Below, piece by piece: positions 34,785-63,977 of a stretch of DNA of 64,000 nt; the first letter of the stretch is position 1, and the number at the start of each line of letters is the position of its first letter. The translations under genes and the position numbers were made by a program. The DNA comes from Octopus vulgaris (taxonomy: Eukaryota), in NCBI GenBank assembly GCA_951406725.2, contig OX597837.1:24738001-24802000 (forward strand), in the 5' to 3' direction. The notes below the pieces were generated by a model that ran no database searches, was not told the DNA's origin, and saw nothing but the letters and a program-made list of their open reading frames with translations.

Positions 34785-34827
<43 letters not shown>

Positions 34828-35684
34828 CATACACTACAGGCTTCTTTCAGTTTCCGTCTACCAAATCCACTCACAAGGCATTGGTCGGCCCGAGGCTATA
34901 GCAGAAGACACTTGCCCAAGATGCCATGCAGTGGGACTGAACCCAGAACCATGTGGTTCGTAGGCAAGCTACTTACCACACAGCCACTCCTGCGCCTATG
35001 TATAACAAAATTATTATTTTTTATTTCTTTGGTCAGTAAGTGTTATTTCCTATTCGCTTCTATCTAGAAATCAAAGGAAATGGCTACTATTCCTTTCAAA
35101 CTTTGCTTTTGTGACCCAGAAATTTGCTTGTCAGTTGCTTGACCTTAACCACTTGAGCTTGTCTCGTAATGACTGATAATATATGCATCTTTGATGATGA
35201 GCAGGAGTAGTGGGAGAGCATCATAGCCACGTGTTGAAAGGGATTCTTTGGGGTTTGAATAAATGTAACAAAAGCAAGTGTCAGGTATTGTTTTCCAACA
35301 CATGCTTTTGTTCCAGTGATGACCAGGTCTCAAGATTGCTAGATTTAAGAGAATCAACTTGTTTTGTGGCAAAACATGAGTTGCTAATTTTCATTTCACA
35401 AAACAAAAAGCCAAGTTCTTATCAGATGAATTCCCAAATTGTTTCCTTTTTTGACGTTTCTGTTCACGCAGCATTATTTTCCTTCCCTCTTTTGTAGCCG
35501 AGAAAGTAAGATCCGAGCAATTGAAGCAAAACTTCGAGCCATGGAAGAAACTCAGAAGGATTTCACTTACTCCCTGGCCCCTGCAGCAGCACCAGGGACC
35601 AGTAAATGGTGCTCATCTCAAATGGCAACCACTCGAAAACCACAAAATACTAAACCTTACAGACGAACTTTTTCTAAAAGATGA
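24451..35684 (+). CDS. RBM18: RNA-binding protein 18 (single RRM), 6 coding exons, ~195 aa
   Basis: Exons: 24451-24465 (MTSDM, GTAAGT donor; least certain), 26579-26667 (RLWIGNLDPRVTE, RNP2), 29928-30054 (LLKILQKFG...HKSG..QGKHRGYCF, RNP1), 31467-31553, 34339-34421 and 35498-35684 (KIRAIEAKL). Total 588 nt, all phases compatible. Confidence 0.92.
26737..27140 (+). mobile_element. tRNA-derived CORE-like SINE (family A), full-length exemplar
   Basis: A box TGGCTGTGTGG, B box GGTTCAGTCC, CCTTGGGCAAGT core, central (TA)/(TG) tract, (AAGAGTA)n-type tail. Other copies: 571-990(-), 3997-4413(-), 5470-5650(-), 7590-7975(-), 14460-14874(-), 17695-18097(+), 26038-26430(+), 27858-28208(+), 34565-34998(-), 41809-42130(+), 47276-47420 plus 53144-53332(-), 54587-54957(+), 59432-59831(-). 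Confidence 0.9.
27620..28985 (+). mobile_element. Degenerate RTE-type LINE RT fragment with a nested SINE; related relic at ~10340-11060
   Basis: KGKALVRSNYKGIKLL, ELLYADNL, LEVVDSFCYLGDLIS. Confidence 0.7.
31986..32437 (-). mobile_element. Retroposon family C with (GAT)n tail and internal variable tandem unit
   Basis: Ends ...catggaaagcggacg(t/c)taaacgatgatgatg. Copies near 2360, 6380, 9517, 29560, 33810, 37168, 38171, 38772, 53960 and 61655. Confidence 0.8.
33216..33346. mobile_element. pogo/Tigger-type MITE
   Basis: TA-caataatacctcg...tggggtattactg-TA. Confidence 0.6.
33944..34165. mobile_element. piggyBac-type MITE (same family, opposite orientation), nested in a retroposon fragment
   Basis: TTAA TSDs; reverse complement of 9772-9991. 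Confidence 0.88.
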
Positions 35685-38600: not shown

Positions 38601-40180
38601 ATTCAGTCAGTGCAAATTTTAACCAATTGGCAGCTCTTTGTCACAGTATGGGGGAGAAATGACCCTATAAAAACTTACGAAGTCCAAAGGGATTTGCAAT
38701 CTTGCCAATTTTTAAGAGAAATTCTTGTTAAACATTTTCTCATCTTTCTTCTGAGCTGCTTTTTCATTTCTTAAAATCGTAATCGATCAACATCAATGGA
38801 ATTTGTAGCTGTGATACCAATGCTGGTGGCATGTAAGAGAACCATCCAAACGTGGCCGTAGCCAGTGCCGCCCTGACTGGCCTCCGTGCCAGTGGCACAT
38901 AAAAAGCACCATCCGATCGTGGCCGTTTGCCAGCCTCGTCTGGTCTCCGTGCCAGTGGCACATAAGAAGCACCCACTACACTCACGGAGTGGTTGGCGTT
39001 AGGAAGGGCATCCAGCTGTAGAAACTCTGCCAGATCAGACTGGGCCTGGTGCAGCCTTCTGGCTTCCCAGACCCCAGTCGAACCGTCCAACCCATGCTAG
39101 CATGGAAAGCGGACATTAAACGATGATGATGATGATTTTAGCATCTATTACTAATTTTAGCAACTGATCTTGATGAAACATTATTTGAACTATGTTTAAA
39201 AAAAATGAACTTTTTTTTTCACTCATTAAACATTTTTTCTCTCATTCTAATAATCATTTCAGAAAATAACCATCTCTTTTTCCTGGTTTTGATAAGTGCT
39301 GTGCAGGGAACTGTCAGCTCTTGAGTCATTTTGTTACCTTCTGATTAAAAATGAAAGAGCATTTCTTTCCCTGCTAATATTCACAATTTTTTTTTTTTTT
39401 GTTATTTTTACCAAACTCACTGTCCTTTCTGCATTAATTAGATTCAGTGTAATCTGTTGGCTTCTTTTGTATAATTAAACAAATTTAATTAATGGAAATA
39501 ATTTTTTTTTATTCTATTTTATTGAATCAGTGTCATCTACTCTTTTTCTGAACATCTCGCTTCTTTTGTTAACACACTATAAAATGGCGACCTCTCTATC
39601 GGTACATATTAATCATAAAAACTGGTGTCTCCTACTCCAAGAACCAATCGTTAATATTATTTTAACTATATAGAAAATATGTCATTATAAACCTCAGACA
39701 GAAACAATGTAATACCTATTTCTTTATTACCCACAAGGGGCTAAACACAGAGGGGACAAACAAGGACAGACATAGGTATTAAGTCGATTACATCGACCCC
39801 AGTGCGTAACTGGTACTTAATTTATTGACCCCGAAAGGATGAAAGGCATAGTCGACCTCGGCGGAATTTGAACTCACAACGTAACGCAGACGAAATACCG
39901 CTAAGCATTTCACCCGGCGTGCTAACGTTTCTGCCAGAGTGACAAAGTTGGTATTTTAAGTGACTAGTATCTATCATCCAATAGGTTTCCACATGGTTTT
40001 CCTCTACCGTTTGCAAAGTTGAGGCAACATGAAGACTCAAAAGATTTTTTTCTGGATTGTTTTATTCTGCTCAACTTTTGGGGTAATTTATTTTTATTAT
40101 TATTAAAATGAAATTCGATTGTCTAAGGGTCGTATTTGTATTAAATTATTTTTTTCTTTTTGAAAGTAAAACCTATATAT

Positions 40181-41248
40181 GTACAGTACTCGGCCCAATC
40201 CTGTTTCTCATCCTCATCTCTGACATAGATGAAGATACAACCAGCAACGTCTCATCCTTTGCTGATGACACCAGGGTCATGAGACAAATCAAAGACAAGG
40301 TGGATACAGAGGCCTTACAAAAGGACCTGACCACCATATATAAATGGCAGGAAACAAACAACATGTTGTTCAATGATAAGAAGTTTGAACTAATTCGCTA
40401 CGGAACAGATCAAGATCTGAAAAATACAACAAACTACAGAAACCCATCAGGACAACAAATAATGGAAAAACAGTATGTGAAAGATTTAGGCATCCACATG
40501 GAAACCAACCTAAAATTCAGAAAACACCTTGACTCAGTCTGTCTTACTGCAAGAAAGTACAGCGGGTGGATCTTGCGCACCTTCAAATCAAGAGATACCT
40601 CAACAATGAAAACCCTCTGGAACAGTATAATACTTCCGAGGATTTACTACTGTTCTCAGTTGTGGTCACCAACAACAAAGGGCCAACTATCTAAGATGGA
40701 ATCGCTCCAAAGAAATTTTACCTCATACTTCTCAGAAACGAGGGACCTGGACTATTGGCAAAGACTCAAAACCTTGAGGATGTACTCAATAGAAAGAAGA
40801 TTTGAGCGATACCGAATTATATACATTTGGAAAATGATAGAGCAAAAGGTGCCAAACTTTGGTATCAAAACCTACCACTCACTGCGCCATGGAAGACGCT
40901 GCCAGCTACCACCAATCAACAAAAAGGCTGGCCAGGCAGCAAAAACCCTGCGAGAATCAAGTCTGTTGGTTCGAGGAGCACAACTATTCAACTCCACTCC
41001 GGTACATGTCAGAAATCTATCAGGATGCAGCGTGGAATCATTCAAATTGCAGCTGGATAGATACCTAAGCACCATTAGAGATGAACCCCATCTCCCAGGA
41101 TATACACAACAAGCACAAACTGACTCAAACTCGCTCCTACACATGTCAAAATTAAACAGAGAATACAACCTGGCAACCACACCAGACTCTGAGGGTGGAG
41201 TCTTCGACTTGGCCTGAGCATGGACTCAAACTCAAATGAAATGAAATG
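40181..41248 (+). mobile_element. 5'-truncated CR1/L2-group LINE with an open RT C-terminal half
   Basis: Motifs TVLGPILFLILISDI, SFADD, KDLGI, YCSQLWSP and LFNS. No stops up to 41217, followed by a short (TGAAA)n tail. The ORF portion 40108-40180 is flanking DNA. Confidence 0.88.
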
Positions 41249-43402: not shown

Positions 43403-46400
43403 ATGGCTTCGACTCTCGTGTCTTTCCCTCACAAATCTGGATTTGTCTTTGAAAATTGTCGTCGGTAAGTAATTTTTGTTTTAGCAAATACGTTATCAAT
43501 CATCTATATGTCTACTAGAATCAATGTACTTAGTATATCTTTAAACAATTGTCTTTTATATACGATGAATCCGTGTTTGATTGATGAACCCAAAGCATTC
43601 CTTTATTGACTCGCGAACCAGCGAGTCCTATTTTATTTTCCCGAGTCCCAACACCAGTAGTATTATGGATAGTATATTTTAGTTAAACAGTAGCTATCCT
43701 GCAGTAATATCTATTGTATTTAACGATTTTTGGCCGTCAAAACGAATTATGAACGTCACTGGCTGTGTTTGTTGTTTTGCTGAATCATTGTATGAAAGAA
43801 ACTCAAATCAGAAAAATCTGCCAATACTTTTAATCATTCGAGCTTTTAGGTTTTGTGGAAGAATTAAAAACTGGCGATCTTTCGTCTAACACACATACAC
43901 ATGTACATCAATGCTTTCCATGCACGGTAACTTCAAAAGAACTTCCCTCGTCATACAATCGCTTTCTCTTAGTCTCTTTCGCTCTCATTACTTCAAAAGT
44001 TCCCGCAAGCCCATATGTAAAAAAAAAAAAAAATTTTTTTTACGGAAATCGACGGAAAGGTCTACTAGAGACGAAAGAACTAAATAAAAAAACTGAATTC
44101 CGCCAAAAAAAATTTTTTTAATCGGATTTAGAAAACTAATTAATTTTATTCAACAGACAAATCTCAACTTAACGTTGGTAAGGATATTCTATTGTACTAA
44201 TTTTTCTGTAATTCTTGTTGGCTATTTGTGAGGGTTGGTGAGAAAATTGACTCGATCCGTCCCTTCGTTTTCCTCCCCCCCCCCACCACCACTCTTAGCG
44301 CCGATCTTGTTATATGAAGGAAAAAATTTCCAGTGCCGCCAAACCCCTAAGGATAATTGCACTTTTTGAAAGCCATTTATCATCTAATATACTGAAAATC
44401 CAGATGAATTGGGTTTTTTTTAAAAAATTTTTGGTGCTGGTGGTGTGTTTACCCCTAGGTCAGTCTTGCTTCAATAGATCTATAAATATTCCAGCCATGA
44501 CTCTCCCGTCTGTTTCCTGGGTAGTGTGTATACAGGACTACGTTATTTAATGTGTCCTCTAATTAATTAGTTAATTAAATAAATTGTGTCCTCTAAACCG
44601 TGGGTTGTTATTTGAGAGTGATTTTAGCTGCTATTTCGGCATTCTTTCGGTTTTACTCAACGATACAACCGAAAGAATGCTGCTATTTCTAACCTACGAA
44701 TATAGACTCATTTGTTGGCTCGTATCGGGAGTCACAAATGTTTCTTATTTATACGTTGAAGAAAATGTACTTCATTGTATGATAAAGGCTCAAAATGAAA
44801 ATTTTTATATATTCTAATGAGTCATGCCTGAATCTGTTAAAGAATTGAAAATAGTTTCTTGAGCCAATGTAACATAATATGACTAGTATTAAAGAACGCA
44901 TCATCTCAGTGCCATCTGGATAGTACATTTAACCCTTTAGCATTCAAACTGACCATATCTGGCCAAAATATTTAACCTGTTTTATATTGAAACTGACCAG
45001 ATCTCGCCTCTCACCTCAGCCCTACCATGTCATTCTAAAAGGACCAGTTTCACATCACTGAAATCTATAAACTACAAGATAATGCATGATTGATTCAAAC
45101 CATTTTAAATAAACAAACATCACATTTGACAGAATACTCTGAACACTAAAAGGTTAATAGAAATATAGGATTTTTTTTTTTTTTTTGTAGCAACTTCATA
45201 TTGTGTAGTTAGGAATGAGTTGCCATAATAAACAATGGAGTTAGTGAGGACCATAGTTGAGGAAGAAAAACAGAGAACTTATATTTCTTAACAACTGGGA
45301 GTCTCCATTTCCTTGCAATATGTTAACTGAATTCATGATAATTGTCTGTCATAGGCGCAAGGCCTTAAATTTTAGAGGAAAGGATGCTGGTCGATTAACC
45401 TAATCTTAGTGCTCGACTGGTACTTATTTTATCAACCTCAAAAGGATGAAAGGCAAAGATAACCTCGGAAGGATTAGAACTCAAAACATGAAGCTGCAAG
45501 AAATCCTACTGAGTATTTTGTGTGACATGTTAACGACTCTGCCAGCTTGCCACTTTCTAACTGTCTTGCAAACAACTTTCACATGCAAGTGCTACTGGTC
45601 AAGAACTCCGCATACCGGAAGCCAGCAAGTGTATGGGGTCATCAGGAGTGAATGCGCGCCGTTTCAGGGCCTACCTCTCGACAGCATCAATGTGCACTGA
45701 GAAAATCTGAGAAGCTGTGATTGATCTATTGGGAATCTGTAACCAGTGATGCTATTACTTACAAATTGGTGTTTCACACAAACAGCATTTATTTTCCAGA
45801 AGAATGTTGAAGTCTATCCTATGGTCACCCTAGTTTAGTACCTAAAGTATTATCAATCACAGAGCTATTACTCCAGTCATACGTCATCTATTATAGCTTT
45901 TATCTCTACTCTAATATGATATGAGGCCCCGCTTGCTAGATCAACTGGTTATTAAATAAAGCTCACTATTTCTCTAGCCATTGCTCATCGTCTCTTTTTA
46001 ACCAAAGCCAGTGGCTAGCCTTCTCCATTGTAGTTTAGATATCGCTCATGGTAGTATTGACTTTACGATAATAATAATTTAATCCTTTCTATTCTAGGCA
46101 TAAAGTTTGGGATTTTATGAAGAGGGGCTTGTCAATTACACTGACCCCAGTGCACAACTGGTACTTATTTCATTGACCCTGAAAGGTAGAGATGACCACA
46201 GTAGAATTTGAACTCAATGTAAAGTCGAAAGAAATGGCACCAAACATTTTGCCTTGCATGCTAATGATTCTGCCAATCTGCCACTTTAATAGTAATAATA
46301 ACTAGTGTGTGGCTAAGTGGTTAGGGTATTTGGCTCACAACTGTAAGGTCGTGAGTTCAATTCCTGTCAGCTCTCGAGCAAGGCACTTTATTTCACATTG

Positions 46401-47374
46401 CTCCAGTTCACACAACTGGCAAAAATGAGTAGTTCCTGTAACCAAATGAGCCAGCCATGCCACATTCGGTATCACGCTGAATCTTTCTGAGAACTGCATT
46501 AAGGGTAAAGGCGGCGAGCTGGCAGAAACGTTAGCATGCCCGGTGAAATGCTTTGTGGTATTTCGTCTGCCGCTGCATTCTGAGTTCAAATTCCGCCGAG
46601 GTCGACTTTGCCTTTCATCCTTTCGGGGTCGATAAATTAAGTACCAGTTACGCACTGGGGTCGATATAATCGACTTAATCCATCTGTCTGTCCTTGTTTG
46701 TCTCCTCTGTGTTTAGCCCCTTGTGGGTAGTAAAGAAATAGGTACATGTGTCTGTGGAGTGCTCAGCCACTTGCACATTAATTTCATGAGCAGGCTGTTC
46801 TGCTGATTAGATCAGCTGGAGCCCTCGTCATCATAATCACCCGAGTGCTGGCTCATAATAACTGATTTTTTATTCTCCAAAAAGATGAGAAATTGAGGAC
46901 ATTACCAAGGTGAGTTGCAAAAAACTGTGGGAGGAAGTCAAATCATGTAAAAATGAAACTTTTAATTACACGTGTTTTCCTTCTTTATACTTGATTGTGT
47001 TGTCACTAAACATAACGGAAAATATCCTCCCCTTTACCCTCTTCCTATCTTATCACCTACCTTTAATGATTGTTATTTTCTTACAGGAATGCTGCTTTAA
47101 CTAATAATGGAATTACTCTGCCCCATGCCTACAAAACTGGAACTACAATAGCTGGAGTTATTTTTAAGGTAAATTAATGTTTTAAAATTGTATTTAGTTC
47201 TTTACTGGAGAAATGTGTTGGTGAAGATTTGTATTAACACTTCACTATTCAGATTAATTTATCAAAATGTAATGCTTACTCTCTTTTACTCTTTTACTTG
47301 TTTCAGTCACTTGACGCGGCCATGCTGGAGCACCACCTTTAATTGTCAAGCAATGCTAGGGGGACAAACACACA

Positions 47375-47423
<49 letters not shown>

Positions 47424-50400
47424 AAGGGTGAAAAGGAACACACGAGTTGATATATATGAAAAAACAAGTAAAAAATAGAAAATGCTAAAATAATTTTATA
47501 GTGAACATTTCAGTACCGGTTTCGGTCATTTTGAGACCTTTTCAACTGTAACGATTAAATAATTAAATTTAGAAAAATTAGAAGAAAAGTTTTTTTAAAA
47601 GAATATTTCTATAGTAGTGTTCAGATTTAAGTGGCATTCTGCCTTTCTCTGACTCCCTTGTTTGCACTTGTGTGTTCGAGGTAGTTGTGAGTTCTTGGTA
47701 GGGTAGTAGAGGGAAGGCTGGTGAGGAAAGGGGGTGGGAGAATCTGGGAGTGCCCTGATGGTCGTATTTTGAATGGTCAGTGGCGGCTGGCAGTCTCAGT
47801 TCAATTCAGGATTGTTTATAGAATTAGCGTAGGTGTTATACTAAAAAACATTAGTGACAAACTTAAGGGGTAGGGGGTGAGAAGAAGAAGAAGAAGAAGA
47901 AGAAGAAGAAGAAGAAGGAGAAGGAGAAGATGATGGTGATGGTGGTGATGATTATGACGACGATGATGATGATAACGATGATGATGAAGAAGAAGAAGAA
48001 GAAGAAGAAGAAGAAGAAGAAGAAGAAGAAGAAGAAGAGAAGGAGAAGATGGTGGTGATGATGGTGGTGATGATGATGACGCCGATGATGATGATAACGA
48101 TGATGATGAAGAAGAAGAAGAAGAAAAAAACAGAGAAGGGAGAATATGAATGGGTGTAAATATAGCTATGAAGGGGCTGATTAGTAATGGATTCTATGGA
48201 GTGTAGTATTTGTGTGTGTATATATATTTTTTTCTTTTATTCTAAAGTTGAGGTATATTAATTGTTTGTCGTAGACCCGTTAAGAAGTGGCTTGTATTTT
48301 GTAATAAAGAGATTTTCTTTACTTATTCTTTGTCTCGAGGTTGTATCGTCCCTAAATTGGTAGAGGGGGAAAATTCTGAAGTTTGGTGTTTTTTTGTTGG
48401 CGCAAGTATCTATGTGTTGGCTAAAAGCTATTTTTCTGTTTTGGGGAATTTTTATCTGGGATCTGTGCAGGGCCATTCGTTTACGCAAACCATTTTTTGT
48501 TTGGCCTATGTACTGCTCTTGACACCCGGAGCAGGTTAGTGAGTATATTAGGTTCTCCGAAGCACATGTGAAGTTGCTTTTCACTGTAAACCGTTGTCCC
48601 TGTTTGAAGGAGAACTCCGAACCCTCGATTAGATAGTCGCATATCCCGCAATTGGGTCTTCCACATTTTTTTACTGTCGGCTTCTGTGTTGAAGAGTGAA
48701 TTCGGGCTTGTGTAAGGAGACTTTTCATGGATCTAGGCTGTCTTTTGCTTTTTATGATCGTGTGTGTTTGGAGGATTGTGTTCATTCTGTGGTCTTTTTT
48801 TAGGAGGGGTATGTTGTGGAGGATGGTGTCGAAGGCTTCGTTATTGAGAGGGTTGTGTGTGGAGATGTATGGTAAGGCTTTTGGTTGTAAGTTTTTCTTT
48901 GATTTGGGATGTCTCAGTTCCTTGATGTTAAGTTGAAGGGCACGTTGAATGCACTTGTCAATAAGTGAAGGTGGATAGTTCCTGGTGATTAGGGTATCTT
49001 TTAGTTCTTGTAGTCGTGTGTCTCTGGTGTTTGCGTTAGAGACTATAGTGCATATCCTTTTTGCTAGATTGAAGGGGATATTCATCCTGGTGTGTCTGGG
49101 GTGGCATGAATTGAATGGAAGATATTGCTTAGAGTCTGTAGGCTTATAGTATATGTCTGTTTCTATTATATCATTAGCTTTCTTAATGAGGATATCGAGG
49201 AAGGGGAGTTGTTGTTGGCTATATTCCATCGTGAATTGGATGTTTACGTCCAGTCCGTTTAAAATTTTCTGGAATTCTATGAGTTTTTCTATATTTTTAT
49301 GCCAAAGGATGAAACAGTCATCTAGATATCTCTTCCAGTTGTTTTCTATGTAGATGGAGAAAGGGCTGCCATATCTTTCTAGAACCTTACGATACAGACT
49401 GATCTCTAGGTATCCTATGACTAGGTTGGCAAAGGAGGGGGCCATTCGTGTACCCATCGCAGTCCCCGATTTTTGTCGGTAGAAGTTGTCATTGAAGGCG
49501 AAGAAGTTATTTTCCAGGATGAATTTAACCCCTTCTATCACAAATTCTTTTTTGATGCGGTGTGGTAGTTCGTTGGCGTGATTCTCTAGCCAGAATTGGA
49601 TTGCCTCTAGTCCTAGGTTGTGGGGGATATTGGAGTAGAGGTTGACTACATCGAAGGATACCAGTATGGTGTTCTTGTTTATAGTATTCGGTAGGTGATT
49701 GAGCATATCTAAGTCGTCCCTTATATAGCTTTTGACATGTTTGAGGAGTGGTTTTAACAGGGTGTCTAAAAAGTTACTGAGGCGGTGGGTTTCGCATGCG
49801 GGACCTGCTATTATGGGTCTCAATTTGAGGTCATTAGGATTAGGGACTTTAATTATTTTGTCTGTAGCTATCTTGCATGCTTTGCTTATTTTTTCACTTT
49901 TGTGGATCTTAGGTATACCGTAGAATTGGCTAGTTTTACTTGTGAAATTGGTCATATAATCATATTCTTTGTCGGTGAGCCCTGCTTTGTATGGGTTTAA
50001 TATGGATTTTAGTTCCCTCATTATTTTTTGTTGACTGTAGTTTTGTGCCTTTTCATAGTATGTTGTGTCTTCCAGCATAGAAAGTACCAAAGTTATGTAA
50101 AATGTCGTATCCATTAAGACAACAGCACTCCCTTTATCGGCCTCTTTGATTGTTATTGTTTTATCTAGTTTTAATTTGTTCAACTCAGCCCATTCTTTTT
50201 TGCTGAAGTTTGGTTTGTGTTTTTGTTTGTGCATATGTTGATATGGGTAATTTGATATGTGGTCACAGAAATCATCAAGTGTTTTATTCTTACCTTTCGA
50301 GGGGGTGTAGTTACTCCTATTTCTGGCTAACGATTCGTCCTCGTTGTATTTATCGTATAGCTCCTCAGTAAGTCTTAATTTTCTGCAGAATTCTGCGATG

Positions 50401-53132
50401 TCTTCTTTAACAATCAAACAATCTTTAACAATCAAAGAGGCCGATAAAGGGAGTGCTGTTGTCTTAATGGATACGACATTTTACATAACTTTGGTACTTT
50501 CTATGCTGGAAGACACAACATACTATGAAAAGGCACAAAACTACAGTCAACAAAAAATAATGAGGGAACTAAAATCCATATTAAACCCATACAAAGCAGG
50601 GCTCACCGACAAAGAATATGATTATATGACCAATTTCACAAGTAAAACTAGCCAATTCTACGGTATACCTAAGATCCACAAAAGTGAAAAAATAAGCAAA
50701 GCATGCAAGATAGCTACAGACAAAATAATTAAAGTCCCTAATCCTAATGACCTCAAATTGAGACCCATAATAGCAGGTCCCGCATGCGAAACCCACCGCC
50801 TCAGTAACTTTTTAGACACCCTGTTAAAACCACTCCTCAAACATGTCAAAAGCTATATAAGGGACGACTTAGATATGCTCAATCACCTACCGAATACTAT
50901 AAACAAGAACACCATACTGGTATCCTTCGATGTAGTCAACCTCTACTCCAATATCCCCCACAACCTAGGACTAGAGGCAATCCAATTCTGGCTAGAGAAT
51001 CACGCCAACGAACTACCACACCGCATCAAAAAAGAATTTGTGATAGAAGGGGTTAAATTCATCCTGGAAAATAACTTCTTCGCCTTCAATGACAACTTCT
51101 ACCGACAAAAATCGGGGACTGCGATGGGTACACGAATGGCCCCCTCCTTTGCCAACCTAGTCATAGGATACCTAGAGATCAGTCTGTATCGTAAGGTTCT
51201 AGAAAGATATGGCAGCCCTTTCTCCATCTACATAGAAAACAACTGGAAGAGATATCTAGATGACTGTTTCATCCTTTGGCATAAAAATATAGAAAAACTC
51301 ATAGAATTCCAGAAAATTTTAAACGGACTGGACGTAAACATCCAATTCACGATGGAATATAGCCAACAACAACTCCCCTTCCTCGATATCCTCATTAAGA
51401 AAGCTAATGATATAATAGAAACAGACATATACTATAAGCCTACAGACTCTAAGCAATATCTTCCATTCAATTCATGCCACCCCAGACACACCAGGATGAA
51501 TATCCCCTTCAATCTAGCAAAAAGGATATGCACTATAGTCTCTAACGCAAACACCAGAGACACACGACTACAAGAACTAAAAGATACCCTAATCACCAGG
51601 AACTATCCACCTTCACTTATTGACAAGTGCATTCAACGTGCCCTTCAACTTAACATCAAGGAACTGAGACATCCCAAATCAAAGAAAAACTTACAACCAA
51701 AAGCCTTACCATACATCTCCACACACAACCCTCTCAATAACGAAGCCTTCGACACCATCCTCCACAACATACCCCTCCTAAAAAAGACCACAGAATGAAC
51801 ACAATCCTCCAAACACACACGATCATAAAAAGCAAAAGACAGCCTAGATCCATGAAAAGTCTCCTTACACAAGCCCGAATTCACTCTTCAACACAGAAGC
51901 CGACAGTAAAAAAATGTGGAAGACCCAATTGCGGGATATGCGACTATCTAATCGAGGGTTCGGAGTTCTCCTTCAAACAGGGACAACGGTTTACAGTGAA
52001 AAGCAACTTCACATGTGCTTCGGAGAACCTAATATACTCACTAACCTGCTCCGGGTGTCAAGAGCAGTACATAGGCCAAACAAAAAATGGTTTGCGTAAA
52101 CGAATGGCCCTGCACAGATCCCAGATAAAAATTCCCCAAAACAGAAAAATAGCTTTTAGCCAACACATAGATACTTGCGCCAACAAAAAAACACCAAACT
52201 TCAGAATTTTCCCCCTCTACCAATTTAGGGACGATACAACCTCGAGACAAAGAATAAGTAAAGAAAATCTCTTTATTACAAAATACAAGCCACTTCTTAA
52301 CGGGTCTACGACAAACAATTAATATACCTCAACTTTAGAATAAAAGAAAAAAATATATATACACACACAAATACTACACTCCATAGAATCCATTACTAAT
52401 CAGCCCCTTCATAGCTATATTTACACCCATTCATATTCTCCCTTCTCTGTTTTTTTCTTCTTCTTCTTCTTCATCATCATCGTTATCATCATCATCGGCG
52501 TCATCATCATCACCACCATCATCACCACCATCTTCTCCTTCTCCTTCTTCTTCTTCTTCTTCTTCTTCTTCTTCTTCTTCTTCTTCTTCTTCTTCTTCTT
52601 CTTCTTCTTCATCATCATCGTTATCATCATCATCGTCGTCATAATCATCACCACCATCACCATCATCTTCTCCTTCTCCTTCTTCTTCTTCTTCTTCTTC
52701 TTCTTCTTCTTCTCCACCCCCTACCCCTTAAGTTTGTCACTAATGTTTTTTAGTATAACACCTACGCTAATTCTATAAACAATCCTGAATTGAACTGAGA
52801 CTGCCAGCCGCCACTGACCATTCAAAATACGACCATCAGGGCACTCCCAGATTCTCCCACCCCCTTTCCTCACCAGCCTTCCCTCTACTACCCTACCAAG
52901 AACTCACAACTACCTCGAACACACAAGTGCAAACAAGGGAGTCAGAGAAAGGCAGAATGCCACTTAAATCTGAACACTACTATAGAAATATTCTTTTAAA
53001 AAAACTTTTCTTCTAATTTTTCTAAATTTAATTATTTAATCGTTACAGTTGAAAAGGTCTCAAAATGACCGAAACCGGTACTGAAATGTTCACTATAAAA
53101 TTATTTTAGCATTTTCTATTTTTTACTTGTTT

Positions 53133-53169
<37 letters not shown>

Positions 53170-56100
53170 CATATATACGACAGGCTTCTTTCAGTTTCCG
53201 TCTACCAAATCCACTCACAAGGCTTTGGTTGGCTATAGTAGAAGACACTTGCCTAAGGTGCCACGCAGTGGGACTGAACCCGGAACCATATGGTTGGTAA
53301 GCAAGCTACTTACCACACAGCCACTCCTGCGCTTATTCACGTTTTTAAAAATTAATCATGTATCTTGTAGCTTTGAGATTTTTGAAGATGTGATTATTTA
53401 TTTTTAGAATAACATTGTTGGGTAGGTGTAAGAGACCGGGTCTGGTCAGTTGCAGTATAAAAGAAACAGAATATTTGGGCCGGATACAGCCATTTTAAAT
53501 CTTAATGGGTTAAGCAAATACACACTGAAGTATATTATAATACTGTATTATTAATACACACAGTATTATTATTATAACTTGCTTCATAAATGAAATCCCT
53601 TGGAATGTTTGTTCTGTATTGAGTTAAAAACACTCTTGCTATCAGAAAATCTGAGAAGCTGTGATTGATCTATTGGGAATTTGTAACCTTTGATGCTATT
53701 ACTTACAAATTGACGTTTCACACAAACAGCATTTATTTTCCAGAAGAATGTTGAAGTGTATCCTATGTTCATCCTAGTTTAGTACCTAAAGTATTCTATT
53801 GTCAATCACAGAGCTATTATTCCAGTCATACATCATCTATTATAGCTTTTATCTTTACTCTAAAACCTTTCTATAATTCTTAACATGCTGTGTTGTTGTT
53901 TAGCTCCAGCTTAGACCTGATCCAGCACACTTGGGTTCAAAGCTGTCCTAGTTGTAACATCATCATTCAGCATCTGTTTCATGCTAGCATGGGTAAGACA
54001 GTTTGACTGGAGCTCATAAGCCAGAGGGCTGCACCAGGCTCCAATCTGTTTTGGCTTGGTTTCCATGGCTTGATGCCCTTCATAATGCAAGAGTGTACTG
54101 GGTGTCTTTTACACATGACTGGCATGAGTAATCTTTGTCTTTTAGTGTATCCAAAATTACATTATTCAATATTTTCCTATTTTAAAGGGATTACAGTATG
54201 ATTTGAATACTATTAGGTTGCTATTTGTAGCAGGTCAATTAACTGCATAAAATCAACCTTGTTGGTTTGTCTAAGCATTCAATGCTATGCTGTAATAATT
54301 GTGCAGAGGTTATATAACTTTTTATTTAACCCTTTAGCATACACATTATTCTGTCAAAAAGTAATGCTTATTTATTCACATTGTTTTGAATTAATCAGGC
54401 ATTATCTCATAGCTTTGAGATTTTGAAGACAAGATTGTTTATTTTTAAAATGACATTGTGGGTTTGGTGTAAAATGCCAGATCTGGCCAGTTTGAACATA
54501 AAACGGGTAGAATATTTATACTGGATATGGCTGGTTTGAATACCAAAGGGTTATGGCTGTCTGCTGCAAGTTTTTGTTGTATTTCTCTGTAAGTAGCTTG
54601 CTAACCAACCACATGGTTCCGGGTTCAGTCCTACTGCGTGGCATCTTGAGCAAGTGTCTTCTGCTATAGCCCCGGGCCGACCAATGCCTTGTGAGTGAAT
54701 TTGGTAGACGGAAACTGAAAAAGCCTGTCGTATATATGTATATATATGTATATGTATGTGTTTGTCCCCCTAGCATTGCTTGACAACCGATGCTGGTGTG
54801 TTTATGTTCCCATCACTTAGCGGTTCGGCAAAAGAGACCGATAGAATAAGTACTAGGCTTACAAAGAATAAGTCCCGGGGTCGATTTGCTCGACTAAAGG
54901 CGGTGCTCCAGCATGGCCGCAGTCAAATTACTGAAACAAGTAAAAGAGAAAAGAGTACTCTGGAATTTAACCCTTTCGTTACCAAACCGCCCAAAGCCGC
55001 CCGAAAAAAATTTTGGTTTATGAAACCAAAGCCGCCCGAATTTACCTATTCATATTTAAATGAGAATATCAGAGCAAATCTCTTCAGTACATTCGTGAAC
55101 ACGTATTATACTTCGTAAACAGTTCAACTACAGTTTTGTACAATAATCGAAGTGTAATTTTAATTCCGTGAATTTTGGGAGATTTTTTTCCGAAATTTGT
55201 TCCTATTGTGTTTTCAAAATTTGTAATTCTGACAAAAAATGGATACGAATTTCATTATATCAAAGCAGCGAGTCAGAATTCAAAGGATTTTCTACTGAAG
55301 ACCTTCATAAATCTAACTCTATGACTGAAAAAAAAAGCACATGGTATTTGATAATGAATCTGATGTTTCATTTTCCGAAAGTGAAAACAGTGAATCTGAG
55401 ATCTCCGACAGCGATAAAGAAAACGAATTGGCACCTGAATGGAGTGAAAATTTAAAAACTGTTTCTTTCGGTGATTTTTCTGAAGAAACTGGACCAAGCC
55501 ACAGACTTTCCCAGAAGAGTAAAGCCTTAAACTATTTCTTTTTACTTTTTCGAATGAGCCCATTTGAAATCATTACGGCAGAAACGAACCGTTACGCTAA
55601 ACGTAAACAAAGCGAAAGAAAGGATAGTTTGTTATTTCCCACAACCTTAAATGAAATTAAGGCCTATTTTGCCATAAATATTATTATGGGTATCAGAAAG
55701 TTACCCAGAATAACAAATTCTATCGTAAAATTTTGTTGTATACCCAATTGAATATTAGCTAATAACCCATTTTCTATAGCGATGTTTGAACAAAATTTTA
55801 ATAATTTTATATTTTGTGGAATTTACCTGTATCTACCTGCAAATAGAGTTACTTTGGACAAAAATTATAGTATAGAATTGGTTGAGAATATTTCATTAAA
55901 TTATCTTCCAAAAATCAGATTAATATATTGATAAATAAAAAAGTTATAGTTGTTTAATGAAACCAGACTAAATTTATGATTACGTTAGAAATTAATTGAA
56001 ACACATAAGGGGTGTAATTTGGTCAGAAATATAGTAACGAAAGGGTTAAGTATCAAATAATTTTGTAAAATTACCTTCAATGGATTATTAACCAATCCAC

Positions 56101-59100
56101 GAGGGGATTTCATTCACATCTTCTTAATGCTGTATTATTGATGTCAGATGGATTCTGAAACAAATTTATATCAGGGCTGATGAGTTAATCTCTTCTCTGT
56201 TTCTTTCTTTTTAGGATGGTGTAGTTCTTGGAGCAGATACAAGAGCTACTGAAGACACTATTGTAGCTGACAAAAACTGTGCAAAGATCCATTATATGGC
56301 TGACAACATTTAGTAAGTAAAACATACTTTAATTAATTATTATTATTCTTTTCAACTCAGGTTTTGTTGGAACTGGTGTCTTGCATACATAGCAGGCTTA
56401 CTACCTACAGCCTATGGTACCATGCTATCTGTTCTTTTCACCTATCTAATATCTTCCTGGTTATTCTGGCATGGCCAAGGAGGCAGACCTTTTGTAACAG
56501 CTCTACTGACACTCTTTTCCAATTTCTTTTATATTCCTCTTGATACCTTCTGATACTGTCCCTAAGGACCTAACACTGACTAGCACTACCTTCACCTTCA
56601 TTTTCCATAGCAGGGCTATTTTGTACTTAAAAGGACTGTATATGTCTTTTTTTTTTTCTCTTTCCCTTTCTTCTTGAATATTCATGGGTTGAAGGGGCAC
56701 ACAACGCCATTTATACAGCACACATGGTTATTATTATTAAGGCAGTGAGCTGGCAAAATCAGCAAAATGCTCAGCAGCATTATTTCATCTGTCTTTACAT
56801 TCTAAGTTCAAATTACTTCGAGATCAGCTTTGCCTTTCATCCTTTAGGGGTCAATAAAATAAGTACTAGTTGAGCACCGGTGTCAATGTAATTGACTTAT
56901 CCCCTCCCCAAGAATTTCAGACTTTCTTTCTTGAGTAGAAAGGATCATTACTATTTCTACTACAATGCCTGACAAATGCCATTTAGCTTGCTCTGGTTCT
57001 TTAGATTCTAAGTTCAAATCCTGCTAAGGTTAATGTTGCCTTTCATCTTCCCAGAGTCAGTAAGGTACCAGTCAAATATTGGGGGTCAGTGTAACTAACT
57101 TACCCCCTTTCTCTTCAAATTTGTTACTTTGTGCCTATGTGGGGCAATTATTACTTCTGGCACCAACATCGTACCAGGCAATGCCAGTGTGGTTCCATAC
57201 AGTAGCTCTGCAGAAGAAAACCCCATGTCTGCCTTGACAGCAGTGTGACAACCGAGAAGAATCATGAATCTATAGAATTGTTCAAGCATGAGACAAAATA
57301 TTTTGCAATATGCAATTATAATTCTTTACAATCTGAGTTTAAATCTTGTCACAGTTAACCTTACTTTATATATCTTTTCAGGGTTAATACTGGGGTTGAT
57401 TTAATTAATGCCCCTCTCTTCTAAATTTGTGACCCTGTGATGGATTGTTGCAATCAGTTTGTAGTCTTTTGTTATGTCCCTTTATGTTATCTTCTAAGAA
57501 TATATTCCGAGGTTGACTCTGTCATCTTAAATTAATTATCAGCCATGAAATCAACCATACCCCACCCCAGAACATTAAGATGGACAAAACATCACTAAGC
57601 ACTTTGCCTGATGTGCTAGCGACTCTACCAGCTTACTGCCTTTCAAGTATATCAGATCATCCCATAAGTTCTGTCAGATTTTACCTTTTTTTAAAATTGA
57701 ATGAATTTTAATAGTATTTTAGATTGTCTAATGGAATTAAAATTATGCATGGGTTGAAGGAGCATGCAACGTTATTTATACATTAAACTAATTAAATATT
57801 ATTTTACAGAATAACAGAATTAAAATTTCTTTGGTTAAAATCCTTTCTAACATGGAAGTATCCAAAGAGCATTTGAGGCACATAGTCCTTTATGAGTACA
57901 AAAAAGGAAACTCTGCAGCTGAAGCAACTCAAAACATACACTCAGTTTATGGGAAAGAATGCTTGAATGAAAGAACTTGCAGAAGATGGTTTGCAAAATT
58001 CAGAAATGGAGATTTCAGCCTTGAAGATGAAGATTGAACAGGATGTCCAGTTGAGTTTAATGATAGGCTCCTTGAGGCATTACTTGAAGAAAATCCTGCA
58101 TTATCAGTTGAAGAATTGGTAATAAAGCTTAGTTCAAACCATTCAACTGTTCATTGTCATCTTCAACAACTTGGAAAATGGATGCCTCATGAATTATCCA
58201 AAAGCAACCATAAATTCCGAGTTGACATATGCTTTTCTCTCCATTCTCGCAAGCTTATTTCACCCTTTTTGGATAGACTTGTGACGAAAAATGGATCTTC
58301 TATCGAAATGTTAAACGTTGTAAACAGTGGCTTGGTAAAAGGGAAAAAGCTGAACCACAATCAAGAAGGGAACTTCGTGGGGAAAAGGTTCTCTCTATCT
58401 GGTGGGATTGCAAAGGAGTAATTCACCTTGAATTGTTACCAGCTAATGCCACAATCAATGTTCAAGTCTACTAGTGAATCAAAAAGGAGTAATGTTTCAT
58501 CAGGACAATGCACAATCCCACACTGCAAAGATCACATCACATAAGCTCAAAGAGGTTGGTTGGGAAAAAATTCCTCATCCACCTTATCCTCCCGACCTTG
58601 CTCCTTCAGACTACCATTTGTTTCATAGTTTACAGAATCATTTGGGGGACATAACTTTCGCAAGCTCCAGGAGGAGGTCGAAACTAACATTTCAGAGTTC
58701 TTCACTCTGAAACCAAAAGAGTTTTACACTGATGCGATTAAAAAGCTTGTAAATAGATGGAAGGAAGTCATAGATAACCAGGGAAAGTGCACTGATGATT
58801 AAATTTCAATTAAATATGACATTTGATCACTTGTTTTCTTTAGTCAAAATTCGGACAGAACTTATGGGATGACTTGATACAAAATATTGAAATTTGTTGT
58901 GTGATGGAGAAATCATGTCACATTCAAAGAGAAATGTGTGGACATGTTGGTTATATGAATTTTGTCTAATATTTTAAATTTGGTGGCAGAAACTGGACGT
59001 TTTCAAAAGATATCCTTTGTCGTATTAAACTTTTTGTTCACAGAATGACTATCTTACGTGTCTATAATACTTACATACAATCACTCGGTAACTTTAACTG

Positions 59101-62100
59101 TCATTGTGTAACTCCTTTTGGAATTAAGAACTGTGCTTGCATTTCAGTTGTTGTGGTGCTGGTACAGCTGCCGATACTGAGATGACCACCCAGTTGATAG
59201 CATCTCAGCTAGAACTACATAAACTCAACACTGGCCGTATTCCAAGAGTGTGTACAGCTAACCGTCTCTTGAAGCAGATGTTGTTCAGGTTAGTCTCATT
59301 TCTTTTTTCCTTTGTCATCATCCTTGACAAAACCACTTCAACCCACCACCACCATCTGTGTATTGTTGTTAGACAGCTGATGCAACTCTTCTAGTATCAA
59401 GTTTTCTGGATTGTGTCTTTATTTATTTAATTTATCTCTTTACTCTTTTACTTGTTTCAGTCATTTGACTGCGGCCATGCTGGGGCACCGCTTTCAGTCG
59501 AGCAAATCGACCCCGGGACTTATTCTTTGTAAGCCCAGTACTTATTCTATCGGTCTCTTTTGCCGAACCGCTAAGTGATGGGGATGTAAACACACCAGCA
59601 TCGGTTGTCAAGCAATGCTCGGGGGACAAACACAGACACACAAACATATACACACACATACATATATACGACAGGCTTCTTTCAGTTTCCGTCTACCAAA
59701 TCCACTCACAAGGCTTTGGTCGGCCCGAGGCTATAGTCGAAGACACTTGCCCAAGATGCCATGCAGTGGGACTGAACCCGGAACCATGTGGTTGGTAAGC
59801 AAGCTACTTACCACACAGCCACTCCTGCGCCTTCTGAATTTATTTAAACTTCTAAAATCACTTTGTATATTCTGCAGTTTTTTTAGCTTTGTAAGTCCTT
59901 AGATACATAGAGACTATTTCTCAACATGTGTATCAATTCAAACACTTCCAGAAACTTGCAACAAGTGTAAGATTTCATTTTTCCTTTTCTATTTTACAAT
60001 TTATTTCATAAGATTCCAGTCAATATTGAACTCGTTTACTTTGGATTTAGCCATGATTTGTCAGACAAACGTATCTAAGTACATCATTACAATATGCAGG
60101 CATTACTTACTTTTCGTAGAACGATGCCTAAAATGTAAGGGAGATTACTACTACTGTTAAAATGGAACAAGTACATCAGGACTCCAGTTGGTTTCATTTC
60201 TGAATGTCTGTGGTTGTGTTGCGTAGACTGCTGTTTTATATTTCTAAATGTAGGCCTTGCGTATGAGTTGGTACCAACTCCACATGAGAGAGAAAATAAT
60301 CTTATGGACTCTTAGAAATTGACATGCGATTAACAAAAAAGACAGTCTAAATGTCTGGAGACAAGACAACTATTGTGGATGTGTGCTTCTGCCTCTAGGC
60401 ATCATTAGCACAGCATTTGAGCAGAGAGAACAGTTAGACAAAATGAGAATATTTGTGTTGATGTATGAGCAGCCCTACTCATAGAATCTGCATGCAAAGT
60501 GGTTGAGTATCTCACATACCATAATGTAATTCTCATGTTAAATCCTAGTGTTTGACAATATGTGAGTTTTGAATTTTAAGTACAGCCCATTTAAACTGCA
60601 CATATCCAGTCCAAATATCCTACCTTTTGAAATCCAAACTGGTCAGATTTAGCATATCACACCTACCCTACAATGTCATTCTAAGAATAAAACAATCAAA
60701 TCATCAAAATCTCAAATCATTTTGGCAATGTTTATGAAATTACAGTCTTGTCCTTAATGGCCTGAAAAATATATATTTTATAATAGAAGGCGCATGGCTC
60801 AGTGGTTAGAGTGTCGAGCTTACGATCGTGAGGTTGAGCTCGAATCCCAGACTGAGCTGCGTGTTGTGTTCTTGAGCAAGACACTTTATTTCACGTTGCT
60901 CCAGTTCACTCAGCTGTAGAAATGAGTTGTGACGTCACAGGTACCAAGCTGTATCTGCTATCTGCTGTTGCCTTTCCTTTGGATAACACTGGTGGCATGG
61001 AGAGGGGAGGCTGGTATGCATGGGTGACTGCTGGTCTTCCATAAACAACCTTGCCTGCACTTGTGCCTGGGAGGGTAACTTTCTAGGTGCAATCCCATGG
61101 TCTGTGTCATGACCAAAGGGGGCCTTAGATAATAGAATAATAAGTATAACAGGTATCTCTACATAAAAATGTATATTTGGATTTTAAAAAATTATGTACA
61201 TTATATTAATATTGTAATATATGACTATCTAACAATGCATATATTACAATGTAAATACAGACACACACACAGCATTGTGTATGTCAACGTCATCATCATT
61301 TTTATATCTCGTTTTCTCTGCTGGCATGTTTTTGACCATGTTGATGTGTATAAATGCTATAATATAATATGAGAATGTCTTTCTCTCTTTCAGGTATCAT
61401 GGAATGATCAGTGCCGCTTTAGTTCTTGGTGGTGTTGATCACACTGGGCCCCATCTTTATAGTATTTGGCCACATGGTTCCACAGACAAACTACCTTTTA
61501 CTACCATGGGTAAGCTTTGAGCATTTCTTTCCTTTGTGTTTTTCTTTTTTTTCTTAATGACATGAGAAGGCTGCCCACCACAACAGAATTGGGATTTTAA
61601 AACCAAGGCACCACATAAAAAACATTGGTGTGGGTGTTGATGCCACTTTAAAAGCACTAGTGATGGTACCACATAAAAAGCAACCCAGTACACTCTGTAC
61701 AGTGGTTGGTGTTAGGAAGGACATCCAGACGTAGAAACTATGCCAAAACAGATGGAGCTTTTCATCTGCTCAGCTTCTGTCAAACAGTCCAACCTATGCC
61801 AGCATGGAAAACATGTTAAATGACGATGAGATGACTAAATATTGTGAAGTGGTCCATAGATCTAACTTCTAACACAATGTGCCTGCCTTCATCAAACATC
61901 TGTTAGAATTTGAACCATATTCATTATGTATTTTTTTGAAAAACCTGCTTTTTTAAGTTTTAGGAAAGCATATATCTATTGTGAAGGTGACAAGGATTTA
62001 TTAAAGGACATTTTAGCTTTAGCTGCTACAAGAAAGTAAGCAGAGTGACTGTGTTAAAAATGTTCCATTGTTGAATTGTTTAGAACCCTTTCTGCCAAGT

Positions 62101-63977
62101 AATACTTGTGATAAGGGAGCCTCGACATCAGTGGTTTTAAACCAGGGTCCATATGACCTTTAGGGGTCCATATGACCTTTAGGGGTCCATATAAGATTTC
62201 GTTAAAATTTCTGTGCAATAAATTGGTTTTACTTCTACAAAGCAAAATATTTTGACAATTTTTTTTTTCAATACAATTCCTGATAATATTTAATTATTAA
62301 ATTTTTAAGCGTTTAATGATTATGGGGTTCCTCCTATTGATAAAAAAAATGGTTGGGAACAAATACCCTACGTTGTTATTTGACCTTGTAGAAATAGCAA
62401 CTAAATCGCTTTCAAATCACACTCAACCATCTAAAAGACTATTGGCAGCACTAATTACTATTCTACCTACATGACGATGATGATAATGATTGTTGTAATT
62501 AATTTTAGGATCTGGAAGTCTTGCTGCGATGTCAGTGTTTGAAGAAAGATTCAAGACGAATATGACCGTAAGTATTATTAGCACTGTTTTTCATCTCTGC
62601 CTTAATAAGAAAAGGAATGACCTCTACGGAGTAATGGACAGGATGCTACTGAAGGGAGAGAAGAAAAGCAAGAGATGGTAGGGTGGGTGTGGGGAGGGGG
62701 TAGAGTCAGCTGCATGTAGTAAGGTGGTGAGTGGCTTAGAGAAACAGTTGTTCAGTCTGAGAAATGCCTACTGCTAATTCAGAAGTATCTTGCCCAGGAT
62801 ATTAATCGTCTGGAAACCGTTCAGCGATGTGCAACCAAGAGAATACCCTCCATCGGGCATTTGCCATATTCTGAACACCTTACTTCCCTGGGCATGGATA
62901 CATCGAGACTCCGACGTCTGGCAGCTGACTTGGCAGACACCCATAAAATTATTAACCACCTTACAAACAATAACTCTGAGCACCTTTTCAAACTCCACCC
63001 GTCTAACACCCATGGACATATTTACAAAGTCAGAAAACAGCACAGCTCTCATGACTTTCGGAAACATTTTTTCACGCTAAGAGTTGCTGAAGCATGGAAC
63101 AAACTGCTGGCATCAGTTGTTAGTTGTCAGAGAACTGCATCTTTCAAAACTTCCATGCTTCCTGAGATTCACCAACACTACACCTGATTTTCTCCCCTCC
63201 ATACACACGCAAGCATGTATCTGACTCATACACTGTTCACTTCCCAGACATTTGTACATTACTGCATATGCTTTACACACACTTTTGACAAGTTGTGGTG
63301 CACCTGAGCACTGTATACAATAATTTCATTATTATATTCCAGCAATACTGTAATAGTATCCATCTGATCTCTACAAACATAGAAAAGTGGACGTTAAAAC
63401 AATGCAGACAATGATGATGATGATGACATGGCCAAATTCAACAAATTGCTCCCAATCCTTGTTAGAGTATCTCCATAAATGGGACAGGCTAGTTTGTGTT
63501 TGCATCAAGTCATATAATTTCTGATAATGAAGTCAAACCAAATAAGGATATTTGGAAAGCATTTAATATGTCTGTTTCAGATTTTGTATAATATATAATA
63601 GGAATATATATATATATATATAATGACTCAGGGTCTCCTTGGTGATGTCGTTTTGTTAAAATTTGAACATATTGACTGTGGCTCTTGAGCAAAGACCACA
63701 AACACATGCATGCATACATACATTCATACACACACACTCTACTAACTCAGTTATACACAAGAAAATATTTGTATGTGTTGGCAAAGATGTATATAGATCT
63801 GTTTATTACTTTTTGTCTTTAACAGTGTGATGAAGCGAAGAGATTAGTACAAGATGCTATTACTGCAGGTATCTTCAATGATCTTGGTTCCGGTAGTAAT
63901 GTTGATCTGTGTGTCATCACTAAAGATAAAGTTGATTATCTCCGCCCGTATGACCAGTGCAACAAGAAGGGTCAAAG
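43403..63977 (+). CDS. PSMB7: Proteasome subunit beta type-7 (beta2), exons 1-7; last exon lies beyond the window
   Basis: Exons 43403-43464, 47087-47168, 56215-56312, 59148-59288, 61394-61509, 62509-62567 and 63826-63977. A 39-aa propeptide is followed by KTG/TTIAG, with the catalytic Thr at 47142-47144. Further motifs: [39 protein letters not shown]. Confidence 0.97.
44933..45153. mobile_element. Second piggyBac-type MITE family (CCCTTTAGCA ends)
   Basis: TTAA-flanked. Other copies lie near 27200-27402, 30960-31150, 37083-37553 (interrupted), 53340-53510, 54330-54550 and 60585-60720. Confidence 0.8.
46509..46743 (+). mobile_element. tRNA-derived SINE with Nin/Deu-like central domain (family B), exemplar
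   Basis: A box TGGCAGAAACG, B box GAGTTCAAATTCC, domain GCCTTTCATCCTTTCGGGGTCGATAAATTAAGTACCAG. About 20 copies, e.g. 1431, 12843, 14245, 16120, 25002, 31641, 39714(-), 42325, 43053(-), 56739. Confidence 0.85.
47506..47553 (-). ncRNA. Minimal hammerhead ribozyme, mirror copy in the left Penelope arm
   Basis: Exact reverse complement of 53041-53088. Confidence 0.85.
47881..48127. repeat. Composite (GAA)n/(GAT)n microsatellite, duplicated unit, in the Penelope 3' UTR (left arm)
   Basis: Read directly; mirrored at 52452-52712 with different repeat counts. Confidence 0.9.
48258..50410 (-). CDS. Penelope-like RT + GIY-YIG endonuclease ORF, uninterrupted but lacking the native N-terminus
   Basis: RT motifs: [39 protein letters not shown]. 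Cys linker CGRPNCGIC. Endonuclease motif [18 protein letters not shown]...R...H and a terminal PLLN. The ORF-track start at 50435 is a TTG inside junction filler. Confidence 0.92.
50426..52322 (+). pseudogene. Second Penelope copy, further 5'-truncated, with a 1-bp frameshift between RT and endonuclease
   Basis: Translation is identical to the left copy from TIKEADKG onward. The A-run at 51780-51785 has 6 A versus 7 in the left arm, splitting ORFs 50344-51798 and 51795-52322. This could be a homopolymer sequencing error. Confidence 0.85.
52452..52712. repeat. Composite (TTC)n/(ATC)n microsatellite in the Penelope 3' UTR (right arm)
   Basis: Read directly; explains the spurious poly-K/M ORF 52421-52717. 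Confidence 0.9.
53041..53088 (+). ncRNA. Minimal type I hammerhead ribozyme in the Penelope pseudo-LTR
   Basis: Layout: stem I cag, core TTGAAAA, stem II ggtc/gacc, GAAA, palindromic ACCGGT stem III, cleavage A, stem I' ctg. Stem I extends via cgtt/aatg past one mismatch. The core carries the compensated U3-A8 variant of the C3-G8 pair. Confidence 0.85.
54971..56045 (+). mobile_element. Internally deleted piggyBac transposon
   Basis: TTAA TSDs and CCCTTTCGTTAC TIRs. Frameshifted transposase N-terminus (acidic region, [32 protein letters not shown]). The catalytic domain is absent. Confidence 0.9.
57155..57265 (-). mobile_element. Small Gypsy integrase fragment
   Basis: [29 protein letters not shown] resembles the Gypsy integrase LLGLRTA..D...SPAELVYG..L.LPG segment. 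Confidence 0.55.
57650..58879 (+). mobile_element. Near full-length degenerate mariner transposon
   Basis: TIRs tatcagatcatcccataagttctgtc and gacagaacttatgggatgacttgata. Frameshifted transposase with WMPHEL, HQDNA and [13 protein letters not shown]. Confidence 0.92.
60787..61127 (+). mobile_element. tRNA-derived SINE family D
   Basis: A box TGGCTCAGTGG, B-box-like TCGAATCC, then cttgagcaagacactt...cactcagctg. Related copies near 3028, 20703 and 46305. Confidence 0.75.
62761..63335 (+). mobile_element. CR1-group LINE 3' end
   Basis: Encodes [23 protein letters not shown]...[14 protein letters not shown]; same 3' UTR and ATT tail. Confidence 0.85.

Follow-up and report, generated by a model that had tools for sequence, protein, structure and literature searches.

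We analyzed a 64,000-nucleotide stretch of the Octopus vulgaris genome (contig OX597837.1; hereafter the window, in whose own numbering positions are given) that carries, inside a gene resembling the proteasome gene PSMB7, a long palindrome built from two inverted copies of a Penelope-like element (PLE) with an endonuclease (EN+). Across the element's family, one tailed and one tailless end were present in 46/46 tabulated head-to-head insertions with both outer ends readable. Together with the variants common to both arms and the types of junction, this pattern suggests that the palindrome is probably a single head-to-head insertion, in which both nicked target strands would use a single RNA as template, starting reverse transcription from two sites separated by 29 nt, with the cDNA ends then joined centrally. 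Priming from both strands with central joining had been an inference of the original prediction, which was made from the letters of the window; it gains support from the family survey and from the nicking and extension of both strands in vitro in the accessible text of PMC11167929. The interest of the finding rests on the family statistics and not on the PSMB7-like locus, whose value is that of an entry to a very young family recording the formation of PLE inverted insertions.

The window palindrome consists of a left arm at 47420-50408 on the minus strand (unit positions 1407-4433) and a right arm at 50426-53144 on the plus strand (unit positions 1660-4404). Both are 5'-truncated copies, and both 3' ends point outward and abut (TA)n. 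The mapping of the arms thus confirms the geometry first described, namely truncated copies placed head to head with their 3' ends out into (TA)n. The arms also differ by indels only, as had been stated: no substitution was found in the 2,418 nonrepetitive bases compared, and the differences were an A-run (A7 on the left, A6 on the right), (TTC)n lengths (17/22 and 12/11), and single-base indels at repeat edges. A7 is the state of 97 of the 99 family copies fetched and the shorter run was seen in just 2; the A6 of the right arm may be a consensus error. The left-arm frame for reverse transcriptase (RT) and GIY-YIG endonuclease is open from the truncation point to a stop at 48258, and the right-arm frame is broken near 51780, at the shortened A-run. 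AATAAA occurs inside the arms at 48303 and 52339. The joint between the arms at their 5' ends stands, but three asymmetries had gone unnoticed: a tail of 29 to 30 nt (47420-47449, minus strand) is present on the left arm only, the left arm has 253 further 5' bases (50156-50408, minus strand) that are unmirrored and form the loop of the palindrome, and a 17-nt insert without strand (50409-50425), repeating nearby junction sequence and with a 10-nt match in the flanks, lies at the junction. What had passed for a spacer between the arms is element sequence, the longer 5' end of the left arm.

Next, we looked into the geometry of sister copies, as had been proposed. Four queries, ordered 5' to 3' along the element, gave 267, 540, 871, and 1,577 candidate places in the octopus genome (places, not copy numbers). 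We fetched 88 stretches of 10 kb around the best hits (labeled with L-numbers), which held 86 distinct insertions; with the window insertion included, 51/87 were head-to-head, 34/87 had a single orientation, and 2/87 were fragments. Two-armed loci are oversampled in this survey, and the true head-to-head share is probably 40 to 55% of insertions. From the number of places per query and a share of about one-half, the genome probably holds several hundred comparable palindromes. Arm lengths ranged from 0.1 to about 6 kb (shorter arms, 0.1 to 4 kb), and the shorter arm reached at least 2.7 kb in 4/46 insertions, which does not support the earlier view that mirroring most of the open reading frame (ORF) is unusual. 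The window palindrome is long but ordinary for its family.

The one-tail rule held in three separately drawn samples (20, 10, and 15 insertions) and in the window (P value = 3 × 10−14 against a coin toss). Chance use of two start sites was rejected because all 46 insertions are one-tailed. The complex locus L067 and the 47th insertion, L104, have one tail each and stand outside the 46 rows, L104 because its second arm fell under the identity filter and was checked apart. Also omitted were L036/L037 and L065, each with an end lying beyond the fetched sequence; L068, in which an end is truncated; and the fragments L051 and L118. The tail sat on the longer arm in 26 insertions and on the shorter arm in 20. 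Among the single-orientation insertions, 30 of 34 were tailless and 33 of 34 had a 3' end abutting TA.

We then compared the arms with each other. For family variants, meaning those seen in at least three other loci, 50 arm pairs covering 58.8 kb had 125 in both arms and 6 in one arm, and the mean difference was 0.13% between arms and 0.71% between loci. The description of the insertion as very recent therefore holds for the family but not as a mark of this copy, arm pairs in general being this similar. The 5' ends of paired arms lay a median of 1,743 nt apart, and arm lengths within insertions had a Spearman coefficient of −0.2. No junction was called for L102, leaving 45: 11 were blunt, 9 had an overlap of 1 to 2 nt, 5 had an overlap of 3 to 5 nt, and 20 had inserts. 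All 11 inserts of at least 8 nt matched element sequence over 8 to 25 nt. Both RT start sites border AU repeats capable of pairing with (TA)n. The downstream site falls within a loop closed by an 8-bp stem, the whole fold being no better than shuffles. In L039 (9300-9440, minus strand), the two sides of this stem are the tail and the opening bases of the following tandem unit, with the tailed start site in the loop; templates would therefore have to come from tandem copies. Arrays of at least three full tandem units, with no substitutions between neighbors where compared, were observed in L036/L037, L039/L040, and L065 and are candidate source loci.

Three features, namely the one-tail rule, a tail that may sit on either arm, and a haplotype common to both arms, restrict the possible mechanisms to coupled priming of the two strands and yield sharp predictions for work in vitro. 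We infer the following order. The first strand would prime at the upstream AU-rich site and give the tailless arm; upstream priming alone would give mostly tailless single-arm insertions. The RNA 3' of the upstream site would stay free, and the second strand would prime at the downstream site and copy the tail. While extending, the second cDNA would displace the first, and each would stop at its own point. The two cDNA 3' ends would then anneal on 0 to 5 nt or via a templated insert, in the style of polymerase theta, with host end joining, and each joined cDNA would be the template for the second strand of the other. We give an even chance to the general proposition that PLEs integrate by ordered double priming on a single RNA, with cDNA displacement and with end joining that finishes both strands at once. 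If it is true, the tail, the inverted copies, and their frequency would be explained in one step; the accessible text of PMC8557442 (Craig et al. 2021) treats inverted insertions as a still undefined feature of the PLE transposition cycle.

Several points weigh against ordered priming on one RNA. No demonstration of strand displacement over kilobases by a PLE RT was found in the literature covered, and in the in vitro work of PMC11167929, as far as its available text goes, the start site was the same for top and bottom strands. There was no excess of co-terminating arms among the 46 insertions (2 with 5' ends within 30 nt, against 0.9 expected; P value = 0.2). Two RNAs of one source locus, a fold-back, or later gene conversion would each account equally well for the shared variants, and the six common variants found in one arm only are discordant between arms. 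Moreover, all family statistics rest on a single assembly and on the 40 best-scoring hits of the four queries.

Among the other explanations, we consider it unlikely that the two strands prime on different RNAs, bound within an asymmetric dimer of the protein; the likeness of the arms would then come from a source locus dominant in a germ cell or from later gene conversion. Such a scheme has no need of strand displacement and accounts for the independent arm lengths and for the six discordant variants, and a dimer of the PLE protein is predicted in the available text of PMC11167929. Yet it offers no simple reason why none of the 46 pairs used the same site twice while the tailless site is favored 30 to 4 among single-arm insertions, nor why the arms agree 125 to 6 when many haplotypes are active. 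Somewhat less probable still is a single cDNA that folds back and self-primes into a hairpin (compare the antisense template in the accessible text of PMC3846280), with one tail trimmed by the endonuclease. This would explain identical arms, including the 30 variants that are private to a single locus and present in both of its arms, and is favored by L087, whose arms start 10 nt apart with a small hairpin-like joint, and by L079, whose arms start 15 nt apart. However, a plain fold-back is excluded for short tailed arms because the tail is missing from the long arm, which is the state of 20/46 insertions; the loops would be long (median, 1.7 kb) and nearly unpaired at the turn, few joints are palindromic, and one "private" variant of the window also occurs in a sister insertion. 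L087 itself has three variants in common with the window insertion and is its sister haplotype; with 4-kb arms and a tiny loop, it spans 8.1 kb as a near-perfect palindrome (L087:610-8727) and is the leading candidate for a genuine fold-back product or an unstable location.

That two independent insertions entered the same TA tract at different times, or that the second entered the 5' junction of the first, is very improbable: TA tracts are hot targets, as the single-arm 3' ends show, but central junctions hold no TA remnant, both arms carry the same variants, and the pairing of tails is strict. An assembly artefact from a fold-back long read is the least credible reading, because a mirrored flank and identical ends would be expected from such a read. 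The flanks are the unmirrored halves of one repeat with host exons colinear beyond, the arm ends differ by the tail, the joint has a templated insert, and 50 other loci are equally lopsided. The one point in its favor is that no independent read was seen over the junction: none of the 16 pieces listed, of about 5,170 over this stretch in four runs, spans the joint, a result uninformative on its presence or absence. Two of these runs were short-read contigs, which drop rare variants, and the two raw-read runs had 2 and 51 reads. One variant present in both window arms was not seen in the contigs of runs X1 or X5, which is too weak for a polymorphism call. The run of 51 raw reads showed odd back-jumps and differing letters. 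In run X23, reads skip back by 40 to 89 bases within element fragments, at 50333-50408 and at three further sites, which may reflect the library or short tandem derivatives. No RNA data set appeared among the listed runs with this sequence.

We also compared the octopus family with known systems. In L1 twin priming, as proposed here, a single RNA is copied from both strands of the target and microhomology joins the cDNAs; there the second primer is internal and the two parts do not overlap, whereas both octopus arms start at the 3' end and overlap. The accessible text of PMC8557442 reports that EN+ PLE insertions often have an adjacent inverted 5'-truncated copy and a one-sided tail of 30 to 40 bp. 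The layout is thus already published, and those elements and the octopus family are alike in the inverted truncated copy, the tail at one end, partial tandems, and (TA)n targets, with a hammerhead near the 3' end there and a hammerhead-like motif here. The strict one-tail pairing is the addition of this family: "often" there becomes 46/46 here, quantified with arm haplotypes, and the full octopus units differ further in having two ORFs that overlap in the −1 frame. In the Poseidon element PAc of Anolis (Frangieh et al. 2024, PMC11167929, available text), the protein nicks and extends both strands, two adjacent internal RNA start sites delimit the tail, and a start site lies in a stem-loop, all as seen or proposed in octopus. 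In contrast, the PAc start sites lack homology to the target and show no strand difference, whereas the octopus sites border AU repeats and form a fixed pair; the main text of that paper leaves the inverted copies unexplained. In Adineta vaga Penelope elements (Arkhipova et al. 2013, PMC3846280, accessible text), head-to-head is likewise the commonest inverted arrangement and a 31-bp tail is optional, but the joints there carry palindromes interpreted as self-priming, whereas octopus joints are mostly blunt, microhomologous, or templated and the arms are offset by kilobases. Neither the strict one-tail pairing nor a double-priming account on one RNA was found in the literature searched, which was mainly freely available.

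The window element matched the RT family PF00078 (E value = 3 × 10−8) and, at its C terminus, the GIY-YIG family PF01541 (E value = 3 × 10−4, slightly below the curated cutoff), and its protein had 502 homologues at an E value of at most 1 × 10−20. GLKF, DKG, two Cys in the GIY-YIG core, and two downstream His were conserved in the alignment of relatives. By the motif definitions in the available text of PMC8557442, the element thus has the EN+ PLE traits: RT with a C-terminal GIY-YIG, N-terminal GxKF/DKG, and CCHH-type endonuclease residues. Its tandem unit of 4,433 bp, with partial tandems and an optional tail, is as in EN+ PLE pseudo-LTRs (pseudo-long terminal repeats). A CX4CxxC linker at residue 606 of the window ORF is conserved in 21 relatives, and both the CX2-5CxxC linker before GIY-YIG and the (TA)n preference are features of the Neptune clade; Nematis has this linker too. 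We class the element as Neptune-like rather than strict Penelope/Poseidon because of its C-terminal GIY-YIG, GLKF/DKG motifs, and linker, an assignment made by motifs and TA targets. The linker rules out the strict Penelope/Poseidon clade, which has no Zn-finger linker; DKG, GLKF, and the CCHH-type residues rule out the Hydra clade (DKT, no GxKF, no CCHH) as defined in the part of PMC8557442 available; and the C-terminal position of the endonuclease rules out Naiad/Chlamys. A minimal hammerhead-like motif with a U3-A8 core variant lies at 47511-47548 (minus strand), and its mirror copy at 53046-53083 (plus strand) is sense to the host pre-mRNA. Each unit of L039 gave a weak match to Rfam HH9 (19.7 bits; E value = 0.56), under the gathering score; the U3-A8 variant has been described (PMC4209133). 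Close relatives of the element (e.g., P0030, P0075, P0078, and P0079) are filed under bacterial symbionts of bivalves and are probably host DNA in bins, against which the accessible text of PMC8557442 warns.

Full units contain a 411-codon ORF1 whose overlap with the RT-endonuclease ORF is in the −1 frame and carries an in-register T TTT TTA; the RT-endonuclease ORF has no ATG ahead of its conserved N-terminal motif (L039:8100-9370, minus strand). The −1 overlap was found in 38/39 stretches read there; the T6 run was unchanged in 37, one base longer in 1, and one base shorter in 1. We examined relatives at 80 metagenome loci, 18 of which passed a motif filter: 8 had a −1 overlap with an in-register heptamer, 1 had a −1 overlap without it, 2 had another register, and 7 had no abutting ORF. 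L120, outside the filter, has an in-register slippery heptamer too. The overlap with heptamer occurs at L119:1294-1375, L120:537-588, L121:1744-1786, and L122:586-646 and in L129, L131, L147, L164, and L178. All 5 relatives at 43 to 46% identity with an intact junction region keep the heptamer (L126 is decayed there), and the heptamer, mostly T TTT TTA/G, is retained among relatives whose identity ranges from 46% to about 28%. These results suggest that the RT-endonuclease of this EN+ PLE lineage is likely made by programmed −1 frameshifting. An intron joining ORF1 to ORF2 was considered instead; the overlap resembles an acceptor, but no strong donor was seen by eye in the needed phase, and the register of the heptamer is kept in relatives. 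Downstream of the slippery site of the window family, we found no stimulatory structure (minimum free energies of −0.2 to −3.7); ORF1 matched no Pfam family; and a longer, fused relative of it was not found, which is weak evidence. In PMC8557442, the abstract gives a single ORF and the legend of Fig. 1 allows an optional frameshift-separated ORF1 in some PLEs; no published PLE slippery site was found in the literature covered.

The palindrome lies in intron 2 of the PSMB7-like gene, about 250 nt beyond the exon 2 donor. Exon 2 (47087-47168, plus strand) encodes the end of the propeptide and the catalytic Thr and resembles chains of proteasome beta type-7/-10, and the plus-strand exons at about 56215-56312, 59148-59288, 61394-61509, 62509-62567, and 63826-63977 are colinear with it. 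In addition, PF00227 gave three matches downstream of the insertion on the same strand, all of which upholds the earlier placement of the insertion inside this gene. A probable exon 1 lies at approximately 43403-43464 (plus strand), judged from the translation around a short motif. That the host gene is essential would follow by analogy with other organisms.

If transcribed intact, intron 2 would fold into a duplex of about 2.7 kb, formed before the acceptor appears. Editing, siRNA, silencing, and DNA instability, which the original prediction proposed, and premature polyadenylation at the AATAAA motifs are candidate consequences. A special role for this locus is improbable given that roughly half of the insertions in the family are palindromes of this kind, and with probably hundreds of them, this one is unlikely to decide silencing. 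Editing of such hairpins is plausible by analogy with PMC5625713, whose available text describes a heavily edited lizard Penelope element and, for octopus, a fraction forming double-stranded RNA that is exceptionally high. Transcription of the hairpins, if it occurs, would make the family yield long and perfectly paired double-stranded RNA on a large scale. Ordered double priming, if true, would make PLEs a programmed source of kilobase-long perfect intronic hairpins in a heavily RNA-edited lineage, and the family, with its hundreds of near-identical copies, intact tandem units, and probable conserved −1 frameshift, would be a direct test system.

The flanks of the insertion are the two halves of one dispersed TA-containing repeat that resembles a short interspersed nuclear element (SINE) and is intact elsewhere in the window: the left half with the (TA)n target tract at 47331-47419 and (TA)n with the right half at 53145-53353 (both plus strand). 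SINE-like repeats with internal (TA)n/(CA)n are abundant throughout the window in both orientations (e.g., 588-1000, 34585-35007, and 59446-59851), supplying PLE targets and also inverted pairs of 85 to 93% inside the PSMB7-like gene. RT fragments resembling those of long interspersed nuclear elements lie upstream of the host gene at 40087-41217 (plus strand; weak PF00078 match) and within it at 62723-63187 (plus strand; judged by eye).

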